A DNA stretch of 59,919 bases from an uncultured Candidatus Saccharibacteria bacterium (GCA_964425445.1 CAYRLY010000001.1:71537-131455); one strand, 5' to 3'. Positions 2,926 to 59,919 are shown, counted from the first letter of the stretch. Numbers and translations: made by a program. The notes: generated by a model from the sequence alone, not told the origin.

Positions 2926-3300
2926 ATGGATATAAGCATTTCCACTAGGGGTGTGATTGTTACTGCTCGGCAGAAATCATACATAGAAAAAAGAATTTTA
3001 AAATTTAATAAATATTTGAAACATTTGAGCCCAGTTAAGGCAGCAGTCCAGTTGATTGATGACTCCGGACCAAATAAAACCGGAGTGACACAGACAGTAA
3101 AAATTGATCTTGATGCTCCGGGCTACGAACTTCATATTGAGGAGAAAAAGAATAACTTGATGAAGGCTTTTGCTAATGCTGTTAGCGCAGCGGAGAGACA
3201 AGTTAGAGATCAGCACAAGCAAAAAATCGAAAAGCGTCGTCGTGGAGTCAGCTTTGACAGCGTTGTTAATATATTCGGAAAATTTCGCCGAAAGAAATAA
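2926..3300 (+). CDS. hpf: Ribosome hibernation/ribosome-associated inhibitor family protein (HPF/RaiA-like)
   Basis: 124 aa. The pattern ...ARQKSYIEKRILKFNKYL... plus a basic tail is typical of the YfiA/HPF family. Confidence 0.75.
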   Translation: MDISISTRGVIVTARQKSYIEKRILKFNKYLKHLSPVKAAVQLIDDSGPNKTGVTQTVKIDLDAPGYELHIEEKKNNLMKAFANAVSAAERQVRDQHKQKIEKRRRGVSFDSVVNIFGKFRRKK

Positions 3301-3427
3301 ATTTTAATTGTAATAGTGATTATCTCGTGCTAAAATTAGTTCGAAGTTTATAAAGTTTAAAGTCCATAAAGTTCATGGAATTCTTTTGATTTATAAACTT
3401 TGAAAACTTTAAATTTTTGTCTCGACT

Positions 3428-6106
3428 ATGTCAATTTTTTCCAAATTTTTTTCTGACTCGAAACAGAAGGTAGTTAAGCGTTACCAGCCTTTTGTTGATG
3501 AAGTTAATGCTTTTGAAGCGGAGATCAAGAAGAAAAGTGACAAACAGCTCAAAGAGTACACTGTCCTGTATAAGAAAAAACTTGAGGATAAAAATCGGGA
3601 GCAACAAGAAAAAATTCTTGAAGGTATTATGCCGGAAGCGTTTGCCGTTGTTCGTGAAGTTTCCCGTCGTGTTTGGGGTGAGCGGCACTTTGATGTTCAG
3701 TTAATCGGTGGTGCGGTTCTTCATAAGGGCGAGATCGCCGAAATGAAAACTGGTGAAGGAAAAACACTTGTTGCAACACTAGCACTTTATCTCAATGCCC
3801 TTACCGGACGCGGCGTTCATCTAGTTACGGTGAATGATTATTTATCTCGCAGTCAGGGTGAAGGAATGGGTGAGATTTATAATTTCTTGGGTTTGTCGAT
3901 TGGTATTATTCAAAATCAACAGATCTCGTATAAATTTGAGAAGAAAAAGGACTACAAACATTATTCAGAAGCTGATGGTTCCAATTTAATTCCCTGTTCT
4001 CGCAAGGAAGCCTACGCTTGCGATATAACTTATGGCACCAATAATGAATTCGGTTTTGATTATCTTCGCGATAACATGGCACCAACCTTGGAACATTGCG
4101 TCCAGCGTGAACTCAATTATGCTATTGTCGATGAGGTTGATTCAATTTTAATTGATGAGGCGAGGACCCCATTAATAATCTCTGCACCGGCGGAAGAGTC
4201 AGCTTCGCTCTATCAGAAATTTGCAGCCCTAGTTCCAAGGCTAACCAAAGATCAAGATTATACCGTTGATGAAAAAGATCGGGCGGTAATGATTACTGAC
4301 GAAGGGATAAAAAAAATTGAGGAGGCGCTTGGTGTCACTAATATTTACGATCAAGACGGGATAATGCTTGTCCACCATCTGGAAGAGGCGTTGAAAGCAC
4401 ATGCTTTATTTAAAAAAGATAAAGATTATATTATCAAGGATGGTGAAGTGGTCATTGTCGATGAGTTTACCGGTCGGCTGATGCCTGGCCGTCGCTACTC
4501 TGAAGGACTTCATCAGGCGATCGAGGCTAAAGAGGGGGTCGAGGTTAAACGCGAGTCGCAAACGATGGCAACGATCTCTTTCCAAAATCTGTTTCGACTC
4601 TATAACAAATTGTCTGGTATGACCGGTACAGCAGCGACTGAAGCTGAGGAATTTTACAAAATTTACAAACTTGATGTGACCGAGATCCCGACAAATAAGC
4701 CGATGGTAAGAATTGATCGTCAGGATCAAATATTTAAGACTGAAAATGGAAAAATCCAAGCAATTGTCGCTGATATTGCCGAAAAACAGAAAATCGGGCA
4801 GCCTGTTTTGGTTGGCACTGTATCTGTTGAGAAAAACGAACAGATATCAAAAAGCTTGAAACGTGGCGGAGTAAAGCATGAAATACTTAATGCTAAAAAT
4901 CATGCCCGTGAAGCAAAGATCATCGCCAAAGCCGGTCAGCGCGGTGCGGTGACTGTTGCCACTAATATGGCTGGTCGTGGTACTGACATCAAATTGGGCG
5001 AAGGTATTGCTAAACTTGGCGGTCTATATGTAATTGGCACCGAGCGTCATGAGTCGCGACGAATTGATAACCAGCTTCGAGGACGTGCCGGTCGTCAGGG
5101 TGATCCTGGTTGTTCTCAGTTTTTTGTTTCTATGGAAGACGACCTGATGCGAATTTTCGGCGGTGATCGAATGAAAATGCTAATGGAACGTCTAGGTCTT
5201 CCTGAGGATGTGCCAATTGAAAATTCAATGATCTCTAAATCAATTGAGTCGGCTCAGAAGAAAGTTGAGGGACATAACTTTGACACTCGCAAGCATTTGG
5301 TCGAATACGATGATGTGATGAACTCACATCGCAAATATATCTATAGTAAGAGGCGAAAAGTTTTGGAGTCAGCGGCGAATAAAAGCGAAGAAATAAAGGA
5401 CGAAATTATTTCAATGGTCAAAGAAGAAGTTGAGGCGATGTTTGTTGCTTTGACTGATGATAAGGAAAAATTAAGAACGGAAGTTGAGGCGATTTTTGGT
5501 GAGGGGAAAATTAGGGAACTTTCACTTGACCAAATATTAAAATATATTGACGAAGAATATCAAAGACGCGAGAAAAGATTCGGCTCTCTTATTATGAGGC
5601 AGATCGAACAAGCAGTTTATCTGCGGAATATTGATATGCTTTGGGTCGAGCATTTGACGACAATGGAAGAGCTCCGAACTGGTATTGGTCTTCGTGGCTA
5701 TGCACAAACTGACCCACTAGTTGCCTATAAGCGTGATGCTTATCGCCTTTTCCAGAATCTCCTTGCGGCGATAAAATCTGGGGTAGTTAAAAATATTTTC
5801 CGGATTGAAATTTCAGCGCCACCACAGGTTAAGGAAGAGAGGTCACTTGAATATCAGTCACCTGACCCAAATGAAATTGGCGATCTTAAAGATGAAATGG
5901 AAGAAATTTCGGAAGAAAATACCAGTGGTTCTAAACAGGGCGGAGGAGTGACAACAGTGATAAGGCAGAAAGGAAAAACAGTTTATGACCGGATGGAACA
6001 ACCAACCGGTGAAACCCAGACGATAAAAAGTGCGGCACATATCGGTCGAAATGATCCTTGCCCGTGCGGAAGTGGCAAAAAATATAAAAAATGCTGCGGG
6101 AAATAA
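3428..6106 (+). CDS. secA: Preprotein translocase ATPase SecA
   Basis: 892 aa with MKTGEGKT Walker A, DEVDSILIDEARTPLIIS, and a C-terminal zinc finger CPCGSGKKYKKCCG. Confidence 0.96.
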   Translation: MSIFSKFFSDSKQKVVKRYQPFVDEVNAFEAEIKKKSDKQLKEYTVLYKKKLEDKNREQQEKILEGIMPEAFAVVREVSRRVWGERHFDVQLIGGAVLHKGEIAEMKTGEGKTLVATLALYLNALTGRGVHLVTVNDYLSRSQGEGMGEIYNFLGLSIGIIQNQQISYKFEKKKDYKHYSEADGSNLIPCSRKEAYACDITYGTNNEFGFDYLRDNMAPTLEHCVQRELNYAIVDEVDSILIDEARTPLIISAPAEESASLYQKFAALVPRLTKDQDYTVDEKDRAVMITDEGIKKIEEALGVTNIYDQDGIMLVHHLEEALKAHALFKKDKDYIIKDGEVVIVDEFTGRLMPGRRYSEGLHQAIEAKEGVEVKRESQTMATISFQNLFRLYNKLSGMTGTAATEAEEFYKIYKLDVTEIPTNKPMVRIDRQDQIFKTENGKIQAIVADIAEKQKIGQPVLVGTVSVEKNEQISKSLKRGGVKHEILNAKNHAREAKIIAKAGQRGAVTVATNMAGRGTDIKLGEGIAKLGGLYVIGTERHESRRIDNQLRGRAGRQGDPGCSQFFVSMEDDLMRIFGGDRMKMLMERLGLPEDVPIENSMISKSIESAQKKVEGHNFDTRKHLVEYDDVMNSHRKYIYSKRRKVLESAANKSEEIKDEIISMVKEEVEAMFVALTDDKEKLRTEVEAIFGEGKIRELSLDQILKYIDEEYQRREKRFGSLIMRQIEQAVYLRNIDMLWVEHLTTMEELRTGIGLRGYAQTDPLVAYKRDAYRLFQNLLAAIKSGVVKNIFRIEISAPPQVKEERSLEYQSPDPNEIGDLKDEMEEISEENTSGSKQGGGVTTVIRQKGKTVYDRMEQPTGETQTIKSAAHIGRNDPCPCGSGKKYKKCCGK

Positions 6107-36445: not shown

Positions 36446-36530
36446 CTTCCCTCCAAAATTATAATTAATTAACTTAATTATAAATCAATTATTAGTTATA
36501 ATGAAATTACTAATTTAAATTAGGAGGCCG

Positions 36531-36902
36531 GTGACTAAAAAACTTGAGATTTACAAATGTGAAGTTTGTGGCAATATTGTCGAATTGGTTCATGCAGGTC
36601 AAGGTGAATTGGTTTGTTGCGGTCAGCCGATGGTTAGGCAGAATGAAAAAACTGATGAAGAAAATTTGACTGAAAAACACCGACCGATAATTGAATCGGG
36701 TGAGAATACGAAGGTCAAAATCGGATCAGTTTCTCATCCGATGGAAGAGGGGCACTATATTGAATGGGTTGAGGTAATTTTTGGCAAGAACGTTTGTCGC
36801 CATAATTTTTCACCCGGCGATAAAGCCGAGAGTGTCTTTTGTTCTAAAAAACCTGATTACGCTAGAGTCTATTGTAACATTCACGGCCTTTGGAAAAGTT
36901 AG
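36531..36902 (+). CDS. dfx: Desulfoferrodoxin (2Fe superoxide reductase)
   Basis: N-terminal desulforedoxin motif CEVCGNIVE...CCGQPM, SOR centre ligands (H...H...C..H: HPMEEGHYIEW, CNIHGLW). GTG start after AGGAGG. Confidence 0.85.
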   Translation: MTKKLEIYKCEVCGNIVELVHAGQGELVCCGQPMVRQNEKTDEENLTEKHRPIIESGENTKVKIGSVSHPMEEGHYIEWVEVIFGKNVCRHNFSPGDKAESVFCSKKPDYARVYCNIHGLWKS

Positions 36903-37024
36903 TATTTTTTGTAAAACATTAATCTTTTTTATTAGCACTTTTTAATTTCTGTGAAGGTTGAAAAATTTGGATAATTGGTCAATAATAAAATTAGAAGTTT
37001 TTTAAGCAAAAAATAGGAGTGCAT

Positions 37025-38950
37025 ATGCCAGTTGAAGGTGGTCCGGGGCCAGAATTTATGGGTAAGTATGAATTACACAAAACTCCAGAAGTTGAGCACT
37101 CGGTGTCTAGACTTCGAAGTCATGGGAAGAAAGTCGAAGAAACCAAGTCTGGTCGTGTCGGTGCTCATTTTGGATTGATAGAAAAAGCCCTACGGATTGA
37201 TCGCAAGCATTTTGTCGGTGATGTAAAATCTGATTTGACCCAAGAATTTACCATTAATTTACAAAAAGAAGACGGCTCCGAGGACGACGAAAAAATTAAT
37301 CAATTAGTTCAAGGTCTATTTGAATCGGAAAAAGAAATTCTTCGTCAGCGAGGTATGGGTGCTGAGCTTGAGGAGTATGGTGATGTTCCAAAGCCGGAAG
37401 ATTTTGAAAAATACAAACAACAAATTCGCGATAAAAAAGTCGAACAGGAAAAAACTCTTGGCGTATGGGTTGATTACTTGGGAGATGAAGAGGCTGACTA
37501 CTATCCTGTTTGGTTTAAATATTTAGCCCTTAGAAGTTTGCAGAAAATGGGCAAACGGGACCGCGATACTGGTGACTATTCCAAACGATCAGCAAATACT
37601 TTGCAGCCGTTTCCCGATTTGTCCCGTGAAGCGCTTGCCAGAACTTTGGATGCCATTAAAGCGATGCAAGACAAAAACACTCTTCTTGATTTCGAAAAGA
37701 TTAACGATTACTCGGATGATGAACTTCATGCAGTGGCAGAACTTGACAAAGCTGCTGTAAAAGGTGATTTTGCTAAACTTTATGCCCATTTTCAAAATGA
37801 GATTGAAAAAGAGCGTCGCGAGCGCGGTGAAAATACTGCCGGTGAGTGGAGACATTTTGCTCAAGGAAGCGATCCGAATATTTTAGTTTCAACACTTGCG
37901 GGGAAGGGGACGGAATGGTGTACTGCCGGTTTGGATGTCGCCAGTAATCAATTACAGCGAGGTGAGTTTTGGATCTACTACACTTATGACCAAGACAAAA
38001 ACCCGACTGACCCCAGGGTAGCAGTTTTCCTTATCGGTGGTCAGATTTCGGAAGTTAGAGGTGTATATGGCAAGGATCAGGATTTGGAATTGGATTTTGT
38101 CGATATAGCTAGAGAAAAATACAGCGAATTTCCCGGAAGTGAAAAATATGAGAAAAAAGATCGCGATATGAAACAGCTGACTTTAATTGATCGCAAATCT
38201 AAAGCTGACGAAGAATTATCAAAAGACGACTTAATTTTTCTTTATGAAATTAACTCAAAAATCGAAGGTTTTGGTCACGGTGCTGACCCGAGGGTAGTCG
38301 ATATTTTAAAAACACGCGATCCTAAAGCCGATGCGCCGTTGGCGTTGGATTGCCGACCGGAAGAAATAGCTTGGAGCGCCGACCAAATACAAGAAGAAAC
38401 CAAATCATACATCGGTCCTCTATTTCCCGGTATTTTTAAGCTACAAAATCTTGAAAATATCTACACCTCTTTTCCCGAAGGTAAAATTCGAAAAAGCGAT
38501 TTGGAGATTGGCGGAAAAACCAAGGAAGAGCTGGTGCAGGAGCTAAAAAACAAAAACCAATGGGCGCTGGACATGATTAGTAGTCCAGACTTTACACCAC
38601 TGGAAGGTCCAGAACAAATTACAACTATTCGATTGAGAGTTCGAGATCTCGGTTTTCCAAATGGCGCTACTACCGATCAAATTTACGCCAAAGCAGAAGA
38701 ATTTGGGCTTGAACTCTGTCCAGCTGAAGTCGGTCCGCATCAAAGATTAAAAGATCAAGAGCAACCTCTGGGAGACTGGTACAGAATCGCTATGAAGCAA
38801 ATTGCGGACCGGGACTTCATTCCTTGCGTCTTCAGTCTGCGTCACGATGAACGTGGTCTGGGGCTGTACTACAGCAATGCCGAGCCGGCGGACGAGTGGG
38901 GTCCGAACGGCGGGTTTGTGTTCCGTCTTCGTCAAGTTTCTGAATCTTAA
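37025..38950 (+). CDS. DGR target protein (641 aa) with a C-terminal variable region
   Basis: ATG 37025 lies 6 nt after AGGAG. No signal peptide or TM segment is visible. The C-terminal ~45 aa (IADRDFIPCVFSLRHDERGLGLYYSNAEPADEWGPNGGFVFRLRQV) are encoded by the VR. Confidence 0.85.
   Translation: MPVEGGPGPEFMGKYELHKTPEVEHSVSRLRSHGKKVEETKSGRVGAHFGLIEKALRIDRKHFVGDVKSDLTQEFTINLQKEDGSEDDEKINQLVQGLFESEKEILRQRGMGAELEEYGDVPKPEDFEKYKQQIRDKKVEQEKTLGVWVDYLGDEEADYYPVWFKYLALRSLQKMGKRDRDTGDYSKRSANTLQPFPDLSREALARTLDAIKAMQDKNTLLDFEKINDYSDDELHAVAELDKAAVKGDFAKLYAHFQNEIEKERRERGENTAGEWRHFAQGSDPNILVSTLAGKGTEWCTAGLDVASNQLQRGEFWIYYTYDQDKNPTDPRVAVFLIGGQISEVRGVYGKDQDLELDFVDIAREKYSEFPGSEKYEKKDRDMKQLTLIDRKSKADEELSKDDLIFLYEINSKIEGFGHGADPRVVDILKTRDPKADAPLALDCRPEEIAWSADQIQEETKSYIGPLFPGIFKLQNLENIYTSFPEGKIRKSDLEIGGKTKEELVQELKNKNQWALDMISSPDFTPLEGPEQITTIRLRVRDLGFPNGATTDQIYAKAEEFGLELCPAEVGPHQRLKDQEQPLGDWYRIAMKQIADRDFIPCVFSLRHDERGLGLYYSNAEPADEWGPNGGFVFRLRQVSES
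38802..38937 (+). repeat. DGR variable region (VR)
   Basis: Ungapped alignment to 39261-39390 at an offset of 459. By hand count there are 24 mismatches, 22 opposite TR adenines. Confidence 0.9.
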
Positions 38951-39260
38951 ATTTTTAATTACTTTTCCCCTTTTGAACCTTTGATTTTTTGAAACTTTGG
39001 AATTTTGCTACAATAAAAACAGATTGATTGAATCGCCCGGTTAGCCTTCGACCTGCTCAGGCCAGGCGGCCTGGTGAAATCTCTCTGGCAAATATAAATT
39101 GAGAGCACAAATGGTTACGACTGTTTATGGAGTGGTTTGTATCTTGTCCAAAAAAAGAGAAACTTGGTCTTTTGCGCTCGGGGATTTACGATCCCGAATA
39201 AGATACAGCCGGACGATTTTTTTGATCTCGTCGGCAGTGGCGCGGATGGCGTAAAAGACG

Positions 39261-39396
39261 TTTGCGAACCAGAACTTCATTCCTTGCGTCTTCAATCTGA
39301 ATCACGATGACAATGGTCTGTGGCTGAACAACAACAATGCCAAGCCGACGAACAAGTGGAATCCGAACAACGAGTTAATGTTCCGTCTTCGCAAGT
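39261..39396 (+). repeat. DGR template repeat (TR)
   Basis: Non-coding copy with a stop (TAA 39251-53) just upstream in the VR-equivalent frame. It is rich in AAC/AAT codons: FANQNFIPCVFNLNHDDNGLWLNNNNAKPTNKWNPNNELMFRLRKF. Confidence 0.9.
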
Positions 39397-39435
39397 TCTT
39401 CTTTTCCGTACCTCAGCGAGCTCGGTATAAACTAG

Positions 39436-39828
39436 CTACAAGGTGCGGTTTTTCTTTTGCAGATTTGTTAAACTTTTCTTCCAACCTCCAAGCATTTTCC
39501 CGGCTTCTTCGAGTTTAGCTGCCAATTCTTCGAAATGCTTGTTTGATATCAGCTGGCCTTCCCATGCAACAGAAATCAAATATTTTAATTTGTCTAACAC
39601 GAAAATACATTTACCGATATTTTCGTTTTTGCTCTCTTTGGCGCTAAAATATGTAGTGTAGGATAGTTCAATTAAATCAAGAAATCGGTCATCGATTCGC
39701 TGGCCGATTGTAAAACGGCAGGGCTTAGCAATATGAGGAACAACCGACAGCCAATACAAATACCCCTCTTTGATTTTAACCAAAATCGAGGGGTTGTCTC
39801 GAGAGAGAGAGTAAAATGGCTTCACCAT
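39436..39828 (-). CDS. avd: Avd-like accessory variability determinant (four-helix-bundle protein)
   Basis: About 130 aa, helical, with ...PHIAKPCRFTIGQRIDDRFLDLIELSY..., ...EEAGKMLGGWKKSL and a basic tail, as in DGR Avd / 23S-IVS four-helix-bundle proteins. The start is ambiguous (39867, 39828 or TTG 39783). Confidence 0.8.
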   Translation of the reverse strand: MVKPFYSLSRDNPSILVKIKEGYLYWLSVVPHIAKPCRFTIGQRIDDRFLDLIELSYTTYFSAKESKNENIGKCIFVLDKLKYLISVAWEGQLISNKHFEELAAKLEEAGKMLGGWKKSLTNLQKKNRTL

Positions 39829-40809
39829 AGTTTTAATAATATCACTTCTTTTGAAAACTTGCTTCAAAGCTGGCGCGAGTTTTTGTCCGGCAAGCGAAAA
39901 AGAAAGGATGTAGCTCGGTTTTCTTTAGATTTGCTGGGAAATTTGATGACCTTGCATCTAGATTTAAAAAACCGAACTTACCGTCATGGCGGGTATACTC
40001 CATTTAAAATCAACGACCCGAAACCCCGAGAAATCCACAAAGCCTCAGTTCGCGATAGATTGGTCCACCATGCGATCTGTCGGATTTTATTTACATATTT
40101 TGAAAAACATTTTGTTTTCAACTCATTCTCCTGTCGAAAGAAAAAAGGCACTCACCGGGCCATGAATCGGTTTCGAAGTTTCGCAAATATCGTTTCAAAA
40201 AACAACACTCAAACCTGCTGGGTATTAAAATGCGACATCAAGAAATTTTTTGCCAGCATTGATCAGAGCATTTTGATGGAGATTTTAGCTCGGCATATTA
40301 AAGACCAAAATACTTTGTGGCTATTAAATGAAGTTATCGGCAGTTTTAATTCCGACGACAAAATCGGGATTGGTCTTCCGCTTGGCAATTTAACCAGCCA
40401 ACTCTTGATCAATGTTTACATGAATGAATATGATCAGTTTGCGATGAGAAATCTGAAAGCCAGATACTATGTCCGGTATGCCGATGACTTTGTAATTTTA
40501 TCATCAAATCGCTTGGAACTTGAAAAACTATTGCCAAAAATATCTGAATTTTTAACTAACAAATTAAAGCTCAAACTGAACTACAATAAAGTCGAAATTC
40601 GAACTTTAGTTTCAGGCGTTGATTTTCTAGGTTGGATTCATTTTCCCGATCATCGAATCCTACGAAAAGCAACGAAACGAAGAATGGTGAGAAGAGTTGT
40701 TGAAAATCCGAAAAACGCAACTTACCAATCATATCTAGGAATTATTTCTCATGGCAATAGCCAAAAAACTAGGCGTGAATTAAATAATCTGTATTTTTCC
40801 AAGCAATAA
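39733..40809 (+). CDS. DGR-type reverse transcriptase
   Basis: 358 aa with FENLLQSWREF, INDPKPREIHKASVRDRLVHHA, the DGR-typical LPLGNLTSQ and the catalytic YADDFVIL. ATG 39733 is the only canonical in-frame start upstream of the RT core. Confidence 0.9.
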   Translation: MRNNRQPIQIPLFDFNQNRGVVSRERVKWLHHSFNNITSFENLLQSWREFLSGKRKRKDVARFSLDLLGNLMTLHLDLKNRTYRHGGYTPFKINDPKPREIHKASVRDRLVHHAICRILFTYFEKHFVFNSFSCRKKKGTHRAMNRFRSFANIVSKNNTQTCWVLKCDIKKFFASIDQSILMEILARHIKDQNTLWLLNEVIGSFNSDDKIGIGLPLGNLTSQLLINVYMNEYDQFAMRNLKARYYVRYADDFVILSSNRLELEKLLPKISEFLTNKLKLKLNYNKVEIRTLVSGVDFLGWIHFPDHRILRKATKRRMVRRVVENPKNATYQSYLGIISHGNSQKTRRELNNLYFSKQ

Positions 40810-40889
40810 TTTTTTCAATCTTAGTTAAAGCAGATAACTTAAGGCGGTGTGATTGAATTTTTTTCTGATCAAGCGTATTATGTCTGACG

Positions 40890-42167
40890 ATGAACATAAA
40901 TGAGAAAATAAAGAAATTAGCAAGGGGGGAGATTGCCACTCTACCAGGTGTTTATATTTTTATCGATAAAAAAGGCGATATTCTCTATATTGGCAAAGCG
41001 AAAAATCTTCGAAGTAGGGTGAAATCATACTTTGTTCGCTTGGAAGAACTGCGAGAAAATCGTTCCGAAGCAATTTTTCAAATGGTTAATAAAATTAATC
41101 AGATAAAGATTTTTCCGACTGATTCAGAAATCGAGGCTATACTTTTAGAAGCTGAGCTAATCAATAAGCAAAAACCTAAATACAACAGCAGACAAAAAGA
41201 TGACAAAAGTTTTTATCTGATTAAGATTGACAAAAAAAAATATCCCAATGTTGAACTTGTTAGATCAAGAAATATTAGTTCAAAAAAAAGAGATATCATT
41301 TATTTTGGCCCTTATTACTCTGGTGATTTAGTGAAAAAAGCATTGAGGATTCTGCGAAAAATCTTTCCTTGTGCAAATTGTTCTCAGACAAAGTTTTTGC
41401 GACAAAGCAAGATAAAGCGGGCATGCCTTTATGGTGATTTAAATTTATGTTTATCACCATGTATCGCTATAGAAAAAGAAAGTCTGGAGCAGCTAGATTT
41501 TTTGATTGATTTTTTGCGGGGTAATAAGAAAAAAATCATTAAAAATCTAGAGAAAAAAATGTTTAATTTAAGCAAGGAAAAAAAATTTGAGCATGCGAAA
41601 ATTTTGCGCGACAAAATTTTCGCATTGTCTCATTTAAACCGTTATCCACTTGGTGTTAAGGACAGTTTTTCCGATTTTCAGAATTTTGCCAATTTCCCAA
41701 GAATTGAAGCTTATGATATTTCAAATATTAGTGGAGATTTTGCTGTTGGTGCAATGACCGTTGCCAGTCTTGGTAAAATTGATAAAAAAGAATATAAGAA
41801 ATTTAAAATTAAAACCATTAATGAACAAAATGATATCGCAATGACTGCAGAAATTATTGAAAGGCGCTTAAAAAATGACTGGCCAAGGGCAAATCTAATA
41901 ATAATTGATGGGGGAGTATCACATCTGAGAGTTGTGTCTAAAATTCTGAATAATTTAGAGCTAAAAATTCCTGTAGTGGCGATTGCCAAGGGAATTGATC
42001 GCAAAAAGGATGAACTACATTTTTCTGATCCGGAAGTGGCAGAGTATTTCAAGGGCAACAAATTTTTAATGATGCTAATAATTGAGCTTAGAAATGAGGC
42101 ACATCGTTTTTCTCAAAATTACTACAGAACTCTTCATCGAAAAGGTTTAGCAAATGAATTTATCTAA
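40890..42167 (+). CDS. uvrC: Excinuclease ABC subunit C, short form without the C-terminal (HhH)2 domain
   Basis: 425 aa with GIY-YIG (PGVYIF...ILYIGKAKNLRSRV), a UVR-like helix pair and the RNase-H-like endonuclease domain (RIEAYDISN...IIIDGG). It ends right after the endonuclease domain. Confidence 0.8.
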   Translation: MNINEKIKKLARGEIATLPGVYIFIDKKGDILYIGKAKNLRSRVKSYFVRLEELRENRSEAIFQMVNKINQIKIFPTDSEIEAILLEAELINKQKPKYNSRQKDDKSFYLIKIDKKKYPNVELVRSRNISSKKRDIIYFGPYYSGDLVKKALRILRKIFPCANCSQTKFLRQSKIKRACLYGDLNLCLSPCIAIEKESLEQLDFLIDFLRGNKKKIIKNLEKKMFNLSKEKKFEHAKILRDKIFALSHLNRYPLGVKDSFSDFQNFANFPRIEAYDISNISGDFAVGAMTVASLGKIDKKEYKKFKIKTINEQNDIAMTAEIIERRLKNDWPRANLIIIDGGVSHLRVVSKILNNLELKIPVVAIAKGIDRKKDELHFSDPEVAEYFKGNKFLMMLIIELRNEAHRFSQNYYRTLHRKGLANEFI

Positions 42168-58569: not shown

Positions 58570-58777
58570 TTATATACATAAGTCGTAACAATTTAGATAT
58601 CAACAAAACAAATTGTTTCAAACGCTGAAACAATCTTGTGTTGTCTTTAAGTTGTCATGTGTACTTTAACAGCTAAATAGTGGTAATTTTCGTCGTCAAT
58701 TCTTCTCGAAGTTTGTTTTTAACAAACTATCGAGAAAAAACTTTTGAATTTTTTGGAGCTAATTCAAGCTCACATTT

Positions 58778-59919
<1,142 letters not shown>

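Follow-up and report, generated by a model that had tools for sequence, protein, structure and literature searches.

The window analyzed here, a stretch of 59,919 nt from an uncultured Candidatus Saccharibacteria bacterium, raises the question of whether positions 37,025 to 40,809 encode a complete diversity-generating retroelement (DGR), and of how the RNA that carries its template is organized. Completeness had been claimed in the original prediction, made from the DNA letters alone, and every defining part is indeed present and intact (Table 1). We consider it highly probable (about 0.85) that an intact chromosomal DGR of a CPR-specific lineage occupies the locus, and we propose a template-RNA mechanism for it.

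Table 1. Features of the DGR locus, in window coordinates.
Feature	Position	Strand	Remarks
Target gene, 641 aa	37025-38950	+	ATG 37025; ORF open from GTG 37019
C-terminal VR-bearing domain	38486-38947	+	Weak C-type-lectin-like fold; domain model
VR	38802-38932	+	Last 44 codons of the target's variable region; differs from TR at 25 sites
VR 3′ flank CAAGTT	38933-38938	+	Common to TR after a 1-nt offset; putative IMH-like boundary
Promoter-like extended −10 element TGcTACAAT	39006-39014	+	Putative role for the template RNA
Stem-loop SL-A	39033-39077	+	Compensatory changes in 5 stacked pairs; consensus loop cUACGg
Stem-loop SL-B	39087-39148	+	Long, irregular; UACG-type cap; 5 stacked segments with compensatory changes
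P0 5′ strand AAAAGAG.AACUUG	39153-39166	+	Ends in near-invariant ACUUGG, a candidate priming site
Three-way-junction domain	39167-39259	+	P1, P2, P3; RNAalifold on 35 loci
P1, 12 bp	39167-39178 with 39248-39259	+	Three-way junction
P2	39182-39186 with 39190-39194	+	A-rich strand next
P3	39208-39211 with 39232-39235	+	Plus variable extension
TR	39262-39392	+	Non-coding; 39 adenines
P0 3′ strand CAAGUU.UUCUUUU	39392-39405	+	First base is the last TR base
Terminal hairpin and U-run	39406-39448, then 39449-39458	+	Terminator-like; avd stop codon inside, on the other strand
avd (accessory variability determinant)	39436-39867	−	ORF of at most 143 aa; opposite strand to TR and RT
DGR reverse transcriptase (RT), 358 aa	39733-40809	+	5′ end overlaps avd ORF head-to-head

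The variable repeat (VR) and the template repeat (TR) align without gaps over 131 nt at an offset of 460. Of their 25 mismatches, 22 face adenines of the TR (17 A>G, 3 A>T, 2 A>C), a bias with P = 1.4e-11 (hypergeometric) that bears out, on careful alignment, the adenine specificity described in the original prediction. The repeat reported there is real and its match ungapped, but it had been placed at an offset of 459, where 94 of 136 positions mismatch; at the true offset 108 of 136 positions are identical, and the next best offset gives 43. The TR coordinates proposed at that stage (39261-39396) were one base off and the length of 136 nt slightly excessive, and the count of 22 adenine-facing mismatches was exact although the total is 25 and not 24. 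The peptide readings of TR and VR were both exact, as was the richness of the TR in AAC or AAT codons (13 such codons). All but one of the 39 TR adenines (38/39) occupy the first or second position of a codon. The bias recurs in related loci, where 38 distinct TR/VR pairs have 748 of their 782 mismatches at TR adenines.

The three remaining mismatches (38851 C>A, 38861 T>G, 38932 C>T) include one, the second, that turns a mostly conserved Trp into Gly. Immediately 3′ of position 38932 the VR has one additional base, after which CAAGTT is common to both repeats; the TR/VR pairs of related loci likewise show a constant difference at the first base beyond the copied segment. The CAAGT of this VR flank is the complement of an invariant ACUUG in the template RNA. 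Only one VR is found in the whole window. No GC-rich inverted repeat lies directly 3′ of the VR, a region that is AT-rich with CTTTGA-like repeats, and the GC-rich hairpin nearest the VR (39059-39074) belongs to SL-A of the template RNA. An IMH with a GC-rich inverted repeat 3′ of the VR occurs in 34% of curated DGRs and is not needed for membership of the class.

The start of the target at ATG 37025, as predicted, is backed by homologues whose first residues are MPVE or MSVE. The protein had been described as unrecognized, and it has no Pfam, NCBIfam or PHROG match; what had been overlooked is that it belongs to a very widespread CPR family, present across the CPR in at least 521 species genomes and conserved throughout save for the last ~45 residues. 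The closest relatives are from Berkelbacteria and other Patescibacteria, and in a sister cluster (P0003) identity is 99.1% over the body of the protein and 65.6% in the VR, in keeping with natural diversification. No hydrophobic segment is seen in the target (maximum Kyte-Doolittle 19-residue mean, 0.79), which is a soluble and apparently cytoplasmic CPR protein. Its AlphaFold model has a pLDDT of 89, and the model of the VR-bearing domain a pLDDT of 87.5 and a pTM of 0.83. The best Foldseek matches of this domain in the PDB are all C-type lectin CRDs, at weak scores (E 0.03-0.3, TM ~0.45, probability up to 0.82), and known DGR variable proteins are absent from these matches; the model weakly suggests a C-type-lectin-like domain. 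In related DGR loci the same domain recurs on different N-terminal regions.

The predicted RT motifs LGNLTSQ (within GLPLGNLTSQ) and YADD are both present, and invariant across relatives. The best solved relative of the RT is that of the Bordetella phage DGR (bRT, 8ub7; E = 1.8e-48), 25 orders of magnitude ahead of group II intron RTs (E = 1.5e-23). The RT also matches RVT_1 (1.5e-24), its sole significant Pfam domain (DUF6671 is marginal at E = 0.041, below the cut-off), and phrog_1423 (2e-105). Its catalytic Asp residues align with those of bRT, as do the equivalents of bRT Arg74, Ile181 (here Leu217) and Gln187. By its motifs, size and closest relatives, and with no maturase or endonuclease domain, the predicted protein qualifies as an RT of the DGR type. 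An Avd-like gene nearby had also been predicted correctly, its antisense orientation having been overlooked. Avd accompanies most DGRs, though not all. Its product matches Pfam PF22296 bAvd above the gathering score (2.5e-12, 47.7 bits; cut-off, 40 bits), PHROG phrog_3206 ("Avd protein of DGR"; 1.8e-16) and NCBIfam NF033474 under its 80-bit cut-off (1.1e-15, 57.9 bits). The likely avd start is ATG 39828 or TTG 39783.

It had also been overlooked that the intergenic stretch separating the target gene from the TR encodes a conserved, apparently undescribed structured RNA, with covariation across 86 loci. A search of Rfam at E values up to 10 yielded no match to it, and neither a structured RNA 5′ of the TR nor a TR-enclosing helix is described in the literature covered, which did not include the main study of CPR DGRs (Paul et al. 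2017, Nat Microbiol). In the P1-P3 domain, 93% of cells are paired and the covariation score is 0.69, compared with 34-50% and 0.11-0.17 in slid controls. A covariance model of this domain matches 55 independent RT-selected loci, and the element is found, always on the RT strand, in 53/53 RT-selected metagenome loci with sufficient upstream sequence. The P0 strands were compared as duplexes: cognate pairs average −7.1 kcal/mol and non-cognate pairs −5.0, and 0 of 2,000 permutations attained the cognate mean. No covariation supports the inner P0 pairs (ACUUG with CAAGU), in which ACUUG is invariant, and many loci have AAACU or CAACU as the TR flank, which breaks one of these pairs. The distance from P1 to the TR start is 0-2 nt in 24 of 35 loci, and 2 nt here.

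Both ends of this RNA carry transcription-like signals. Upstream, the alignments contain a conserved promoter-like block (TTTTTGnTAyAmT); 62 of 86 loci match this pattern, mostly at 137-148 nt 5′ of P1, as against 30 of 86 after shuffling. The extended −10 element of the studied locus is a match to the consensus only, and a simple −35/−10 promoter scan missed it. Downstream of the TR, 75 of 86 loci have a hairpin and U-run whose stem sequences are very different from one another, with GGTTTTTCTTTT nearly invariant in this region. The terminal hairpin looks like an intrinsic terminator, and could also be an Avd-binding stem-loop; no separate conserved structure was detected further 3′. At the studied locus, SL-A bears a GC-rich insertion that includes the 39059-39074 hairpin.

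We compared this organization with that of the Bordetella phage BPP-1 DGR (mtd-avd-TR-brt), whose RT and Avd are both homologous to those found here. The two elements share a TR of ~130 nt, a C-terminal VR on a lectin-like fold (a weak match here), a 12-bp duplex directly 5′ of the TR with an adjoining duplex at the TR 3′ end, and a short stem-loop followed on the same strand by an A-rich segment. The phage RNA consists of the avd 3′ end, the TR and a spacer 3′ of the TR (the Rfam-type RT-10 motif). Here, in contrast, the strand resembling the spacer is found on the 5′ side of the TR, two additional stem-loops precede it, and a BPP-1-type 3′ spacer is absent: the RNA ends right after the TR in the terminator-like hairpin and U-run, beyond which lies antisense avd. 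The studied element also differs in having no GC-rich inverted repeat 3′ of the VR, and in its cellular host and apparently cytoplasmic target, where BPP-1 diversifies a phage tail fibre. The phage RNA runs in the order Sp53-56, Sp59-70, Sp71-78, A79-81 (bioRxiv 10.1101/2023.10.23.563531), and the studied RNA keeps this order as P0 inner strand, 12-bp P1 strand, short stem-loop and A-rich strand. Given this shift to the 5′ side with the phage order kept, we read the RNA as a circular permutation. We suggest, tentatively and at slightly less than even odds, that DGRs of this CPR lineage may use a circularly permuted, self-contained RNA of ~440 nt that has a promoter and a terminator to itself, an arrangement not described before. 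This reading draws on topological analogy rather than homology of sequence, the RNA having no detectable similarity to the phage spacer.

A somewhat less probable, still serious alternative is that the RNA 5′ of the TR acts as a stability, processing or regulatory leader and is no rearranged equivalent of the phage spacer, with priming provided by elements 3′ of the TR, such as the terminal hairpin or avd-antisense RNA, in line with the canonical model, or by the 3′-OH of a nicked template. Stem-loops just 3′ of the TR, together with upstream/downstream duplexes, have been reported for CPR DGRs from no more than 40 nt of upstream and 100 nt of downstream sequence (bioRxiv 10.1101/2023.10.23.563531). 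This favors a leader, and the terminal hairpin here could be such an Avd-binding stem-loop. The published nicked-template priming model (PMC5703328) and the inner P0 pairs without covariation also speak for it. Against a leader stand the agreement of strand order with the phage RNA, the coincidence of both TR boundaries with P1 and P0, and the 3′ side itself, where the hairpin gives way to the U-run and antisense avd coding sequence with no further conserved structure detected.

Under the permuted arrangement, we propose the following mechanism. An RNA of ~440 nt would be transcribed from near the extended −10 element to the hairpin and U-run. Covariation of its helices, the inner P0 pairs excepted, shows that the RNA folds with P0 and P1 clamping the two ends of the 131-nt TR, which is looped out. 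RT and Avd would bind this template RNA. By analogy with the phage template:primer duplex and "cPRT Stop" duplex, cDNA synthesis would be primed in cis at the TR 3′ end, beside the invariant ACUUGG at the P0/P1 junction, and would halt at P1. The RT would misincorporate opposite the 39 template adenines, which is where the adenine-specific signature is observed, and the cDNA would then replace the VR, a transfer and replacement presumed from the DGR class. Such replacement could recode up to 24 codons, or about 3e22 possible proteins, and would give the conserved soluble target a hypervariable face on its C-terminal, weakly C-type-lectin-like domain.

If the permutation is true, the primer strand, the stop-duplex strand, the stem-loop and the A-rich segment of the spacer equivalent would all lie 5′ of the TR, preceded by two UACG-capped stem-loops and carried to the TR 3′ end by a covarying long-range helix. 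RNA helices would then set both the 5′ and the 3′ limits of mutagenesis, and the single base at which TR and VR constantly differ would be the first one left uncopied. The complementarity of the invariant ACUUG to the VR flank CAAGT would also hint at RNA-guided target recognition.

The element could also be the relic of a DGR once active and now silent, its VR the frozen trace of past mutagenesis, which we regard as unlikely. The three non-adenine mismatches are in keeping with such silencing, and the loss of a mostly conserved Trp in the VR means that some decay is possible. Many relatives have decayed (targets without an RT, RT or avd fragments, a shortened TR), and the protein collection contains a single VR version of this exact locus. 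However, the RT, Avd, the TR and every RNA helix remain intact here, the RT catalytic residues are conserved, and the locus scores 132 bits under the RNA covariance model, the third best of all loci. Non-A differences are also found in 23% of curated DGRs (PMC5758913).

In a third alternative, the 3′ end of the gene would simply have been duplicated and have diverged, beside an RT from another retroelement such as a group II intron, retron or defence system; this is extremely improbable and is refuted by the RT affinities given above and by the adenine bias, which recurs in 38 independent pairs. NCBIfam, which has no DGR RT model, gives as its best match a group II intron RT/maturase (TIGR04416) and scores Drt and retron models lower still, but all of these scores are far below the cut-offs (141 against 300 bits for TIGR04416; 58.7 against 235 for the retron model), and Rfam finds no intron or retron RNA. 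Group II intron RTs share related fingers and palm (E about 1e-23) and an N-terminal extension with the studied RT, which differs in its LGNLTSQ motif and in having neither a maturase/X or endonuclease domain nor an intron RNA.

DGRs had been stated to be known already from small-genome uncultivated lineages, correctly so (CPR DGRs, PMC5758913). The locus runs target, TR, avd (antisense), RT, with TR and RT on the same strand. As this layout is that of the published Architecture B3, TR-(avd)-RT, which makes up 90% of the CPR DGR set (Wu et al. 2018, PMC5758913), we take the element to be a further member of a known CPR DGR type. Gene order, orientation and CPR host are the same, as are a domain-less target without a transmembrane segment, adenine-specific mutagenesis and AAY-rich TR codons, and we see no essential difference between the two. 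Architecture B3 CPR DGRs are probably the "DGR clade 2" of Roux et al. (2021, PMC8144416), a clade confined to Patescibacteria; judging only by its CPR host and by a target without recognizable domains, the studied RT would fall in the same clade. Roughly 45 of 80 related genome loci have the same target/TR/(avd)/RT layout, and in some of them TR, avd and RT are inverted together as a block.

The 3′ end of the 641-aa target gene and the non-coding template repeat form a variable repeat/template repeat (VR/TR) pair (see table). A scan of VR/TR offsets revealed a sharp single optimum at 460 nt (108/136 identical, next best 43). The original prediction had used an offset of 459, at which the alignment fails (94 mismatches/136), a one-base coordinate slip. 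It had also given an ungapped match of 136 nt, which holds over 131 nt and is slightly too long as stated, as one additional VR base is inserted after 38932, followed by CAAGTT common to both repeats. Realignment at 460 keeps the predicted adenine specificity: 22 mismatches face an adenine of the TR (A>G in 17, A>T in 3 and A>C in 2 cases), as had been counted, out of a total of 25 rather than 24 (P = 1.4e-11, hypergeometric, 39 adenines in 131 positions). The three non-adenine changes are 38851 C>A, 38861 T>G and 38932 C>T. Thirty-eight of the 39 TR adenines occupy codon position 1 or 2, and the 24 variable codons allow about 3e22 possible proteins. The TR is rich in AAC/AAT as described (13 codons), and the peptides read earlier from TR and VR are exact. 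A search of the whole window found no further VR. Codon 38861-38863 is GGG (Gly) in the VR and TGG (Trp) in the TR; most family members have Trp here (GLWL motif).

Among 80 genome loci retrieved for the target family, about 45 have a VR/TR pair of 129-142 nt with almost exclusively adenine-site mismatches, and in these the avd stop codon, on the opposite strand, comes within 11-55 nt after the TR, with the reverse transcriptase (RT) gene beyond it; a few loci have the TR-avd-RT block inverted as one unit relative to the target. Summed over 38 distinct VR/TR pairs, 748/782 mismatches fall at TR adenines. The other loci (about 35/80) contain the target without a diversity-generating retroelement (DGR) or with remnants only. 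As both the target - TR - (avd) - RT layout (PMC5758913) and a Patescibacteria-restricted DGR clade whose targets have no recognisable domains or transmembrane segments (Roux et al., PMC8144416) are already published, the window element belongs to a known kind. Within the CPR DGR lineage it is ordinary, and in itself no surprise: DGRs are enriched in CPR genomes, where one is expected and this gene layout is the norm.

The best solved relative of the RT is the Bordetella phage BPP-1 DGR RT (bRT; 8ub7, E = 1.8e-48), with group II intron RTs at 1.5e-23. In the 8ub7 alignment the catalytic aspartates and the equivalents of bRT Lys29, Arg74 and Gln187 match, and Leu217 lies opposite bRT Ile181. 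The hallmarks LGNLTSQ and YADD noted from the sequence are present and invariant, GLPLGNLTSQ and YADD being unchanged across ten relatives. Assignment to the group II, Drt or retron type was rejected, the corresponding NCBIfam models scoring far under their cut-offs; NCBIfam has no DGR RT model. An N-terminal extension (MRNN..P.QI.LFD..(ER)n) is kept in 8/10 relatives. The predicted Avd-like gene is also present, with a match to PHROG 'Avd protein of DGR' (1.8e-16) and one to NCBIfam DivGenRetAVD that is under cut-off. Its antisense orientation had gone unnoticed; apart from this and the coordinate slip, the DGR had been both observed and interpreted correctly. The avd and RT ORFs overlap head-to-head by up to 135 nt (39733-39867). 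Both frames are open through the overlap in many loci, and a (GA)n tract lies within it at 39795-39810.

Features of the DGR locus (window positions)
Feature	Position	Strand	Basis or remark
Target ORF	37019-38950	+	likely start ATG 37025
VR	38802-38932	+	131 nt, ungapped vs TR
Extended -10-like block	39006-39014	+	TTTTTGnTAyAmT; conserved, upstream of SL-A
SL-A	39033-39077	+	covarying; UACG-type consensus loop
SL-B	39087-39148	+	covarying; UACG-type consensus loop
P0, outer part	39153-39159 with 39399-39405	+	covariation screen
P0, inner part	39161-39166 with 39392-39397	+	per-locus duplex folding
P1	39167-39178 with 39248-39259	+	12 bp; RNAalifold
P2	39182-39186 with 39190-39194	+	RNAalifold
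P3	39208-39211 with 39232-39235, plus variable extension	+	RNAalifold
TR	39262-39392	+	131 nt, 39 adenines
Terminal hairpin and U-run	39406-39458	+	directly 3′ of P0; per-locus folding
avd	39436-39867 at most	-	Pfam bAvd above cut-off
RT	39733-40809	+	RVT_1, sole significant Pfam domain

The 311 nt from the target stop codon to the TR are a conserved structured RNA and not a spacer. In an alignment of 35 loci the 150 nt upstream of the TR are strongly conserved, and RNAalifold predicts a three-way junction (P1-P3) with compensatory changes in 21/24 pairs. As an independent test, a covariance model built from this alignment was run on 80 metagenome loci (L086-L165) chosen by RT similarity alone. 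The model matches 55 of the 80 (E down to 1e-32), and every match shares the strand of the RT and lies 540-700 nt 5′ of it. Wherever the upstream sequence is long enough (53 loci), the RNA element is there; the 27 loci without it all have 600 nt or less of upstream sequence. The window itself contains one match (39118-39271, 132 bits). Paired cells make up 93% of the model-fitted alignment, vs 34-50% with partners slid, and the covariation score is 0.69, vs 0.11-0.17. When the intergenic region, or the TR with its flank, was folded as a single sequence, z-scores were near 0; the RNA was revealed only by comparing loci. It matches no Rfam family, whether the gathering threshold is applied or E values up to 10 are allowed, and no description of it was found in Rfam or in the literature searched, Paul et al. 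2017 and the Wu et al. supplement lying outside that literature. In one related locus (L017), a run of N (masked) breaks the RNA region about 100 nt past the target stop.

To find further helices, we screened 86 distinct full-length sequences all-against-all for stacked, two-sided covariation, both properties being required since G-U and one-sided variation dominated a looser screen. This screen recovered P1-P3 and one further helix, P0, which encloses the junction domain and the entire TR. Per-locus folding shows matched P0 changes across loci (e.g. GAAGC/GCUUC and UAAGC/GCUUA), and cognate duplexes average -7.1 kcal/mol vs -5.0 kcal/mol for non-cognate ones, a cognate mean reached in 0/2000 permutations. 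Where P0 meets P1, the sequence ACUUGG hardly varies. As the inner P0 pairs are without covariation support and one of them is broken in many loci, P0 does not fix the priming nucleotide. Within SL-A, the window has a GC-rich insertion (39038-39072) including the hairpin CAGGCC-AGGC-GGCCUG (39059-39074); among the three other loci displayed (L002, L011 and L036), only L002 has it in common.

The region 3′ of the TR was folded locus by locus, since the hairpin arms were misaligned in the MAFFT alignment used for RNAalifold. A terminal hairpin followed by a U-run is found in 75/86 loci with very different stem sequences, and it spans the avd stop codon of the opposite strand. A consensus promoter/terminator scan picked up neither this hairpin nor the extended -10 element. 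We infer the ends of the transcript, and with them a self-contained RNA of about 440 nt. Because stem-loops are reported downstream in CPR DGRs by the phage study discussed next, the terminal hairpin may bind Avd, either in addition to acting as a terminator or in place of it.

In the Bordetella phage RNP, Sp53-56 and the TR 3′ end form the template:primer duplex and, two nt further, Sp59-70 pairs with the segment just 5′ of the TR in an 11-12-bp 'cPRT Stop' duplex; the spacer strand continues with a short stem-loop and then adenosines in A-minor contacts (bioRxiv 10.1101/2023.10.23.563531). The phage TR loops out between both duplexes and the cDNA stops just short of the stop duplex; for CPR DGRs the same study, based on short flanks, reports stem-loops on the downstream side together with upstream/downstream duplexes (bioRxiv 10.1101/2023.10.23.563531). 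An alternative model of priming invokes a nicked template (PMC5703328).

As in the phage, one strand of the CPR RNA carries in succession the inner strand of P0 (AACUUG), the 5′ strand of P1 (12 bp), P2 and a conserved A-rich segment, AAAUAAAAUACA. Unlike in the phage, where the spacer lies 3′ of the TR, this spacer-like strand lies 5′ of it. The CPR TR loops out between the 3′ strands of P1 and P0, and the CPR RNA would be a circular permutation of the phage RNA machine, a reading to which we give a probability of roughly 0.5 (0.45-0.55) of being both correct and undescribed. Consistent with it are the nearly invariant ACUUGG and both limits of VR/TR homology, which starts 0-2 nt after P1 in 24/35 loci and stops at the CG preceding the P0 3′ strand. 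The next base constantly differs between the repeats, and as it is usually A in the TR and almost always C in the VR, it does not reflect random mutagenesis. A circular permutation would also explain why an antisense avd occupies the place of the phage spacer. The template RNA structure predicts the start and stop of reverse transcription, and suggests that the RNA logic solved in the phage is conserved but rearranged in CPR, which is directly testable in a small RT-Avd-RNA reconstitution. The locus is a clean, fully annotated and covariation-supported example of a CPR-type template RNA; its value lies in this resolved anatomy and in the identification, as a DGR target, of a protein family that is very widespread among CPR.

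The target family is among the most widespread CPR-specific proteins without an assigned function, with at least 521 genomes encoding it when each species is represented by a single genome. Full-length homologues number more than 120 at E < 1e-128, without exception from Patescibacteria (CPR); the closest named one, at 75% identity, is a hypothetical protein from Berkelbacteria. Homologues start with MPVE or MSVE, in agreement with the predicted ATG at 37025 and length of 641 aa. Conservation extends over the whole protein up to the final ~45 residues; these are hypervariable whichever members are compared. The target matches no Pfam family, even when 19 members are searched at E up to 5, no NCBIfam or PHROG family, and nothing in a profile search of PDB sequences; GNAT/MYST matches are weak (E about 1), and no PcfJ-like domain, as reported from some CPR targets, was found. 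It has neither a hydrophobic segment nor a signal-like N-terminus, and appears to be cytoplasmic. The AlphaFold model is confident (pLDDT 89), and Foldseek searches of PDB and BFVD with the full model gave nothing significant. For the C-terminal 174 residues modelled separately (pLDDT 87.5, pTM 0.83), the best Foldseek PDB matches are all C-type lectin CRDs, weakly (E 0.03-0.3, TM about 0.45, probability up to 0.82); a lectin-like scaffold for the VR is plausible from these models and not established. The family, with and without DGR, provides a handle on the ligands of cytoplasmic CPR DGR targets, left open by surveys.

Another target is found in 39/53 of the RT-selected metagenome loci. Seven share with the target family only the C-terminal 70-230 residues (most 120-170), and the VR domain thus behaves as a module. 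Since most targets in these loci differ or share the VR domain alone, the RT, Avd and RNA form a unit that is combined with various targets.

In the protein collection the window's target occurs as a single VR version. For a sister cluster (P0003) 80% identical to it, we compared 15 members drawn from different samples. Identity is 99.1% in the body and 65.6% in the last 52 columns, and 33/53 variable columns lie inside the VR. Such a pattern is what an active DGR leaves in a population, seen here in a relative and not at the window locus.

Stages of DGR decay beside the same target family are seen in L010, L019, L041, L044 and L067 (also L020, L047 and L056). L010 keeps an intact RNA element and a 66-nt TR without avd or RT; in others, avd or the RT is reduced to fragments, or the RNA element is weakening. 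The target 3′ end and RNA element are in exact tandem duplication in L025 (6618-6898 and 9724-10004), and L134 has the RNA element twice (931-1084 and 3300-3446) upstream of one RT. A 2.3-kb stretch of another assembly (L001, 1439-3781), comprising the desulfoferrodoxin gene and the target gene body, is identical but for 1 nt to window 36492-38803, with about 75-82% identity on either side. The right breakpoint is exactly the VR start, and L001 has its own diverged TR matching its own VR (22/23 mismatches at adenines). The mosaic has two readings: either recombination exchanged the VR-TR cassette, or the assembly is chimeric at the hypervariable site.

G+C is 0.40-0.47 over the target gene, RNA and TR vs 0.30-0.35 in flanking genes (36900-39500 vs 40500-42000), and the cassette neighbours are desulfoferrodoxin/UvrC in the window and LigB/Der in a Berkelbacteria genome. 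This G+C contrast and the differing neighbourhoods suggest mobility of the cassette among CPR genomes. The 60-kb window, in which no tRNA gene was found, ends within a bacterial 16S rRNA gene (58777-59919, truncated). Directly past the target stop (38951-39004), CTT(T/A)GA-like motifs recur about every 10-11 nt. They remain with the target when the TR-avd-RT block is inverted and are present also in DGR-free homologue loci; candidate roles are a homing signal, an UP-like element and a regulator site.
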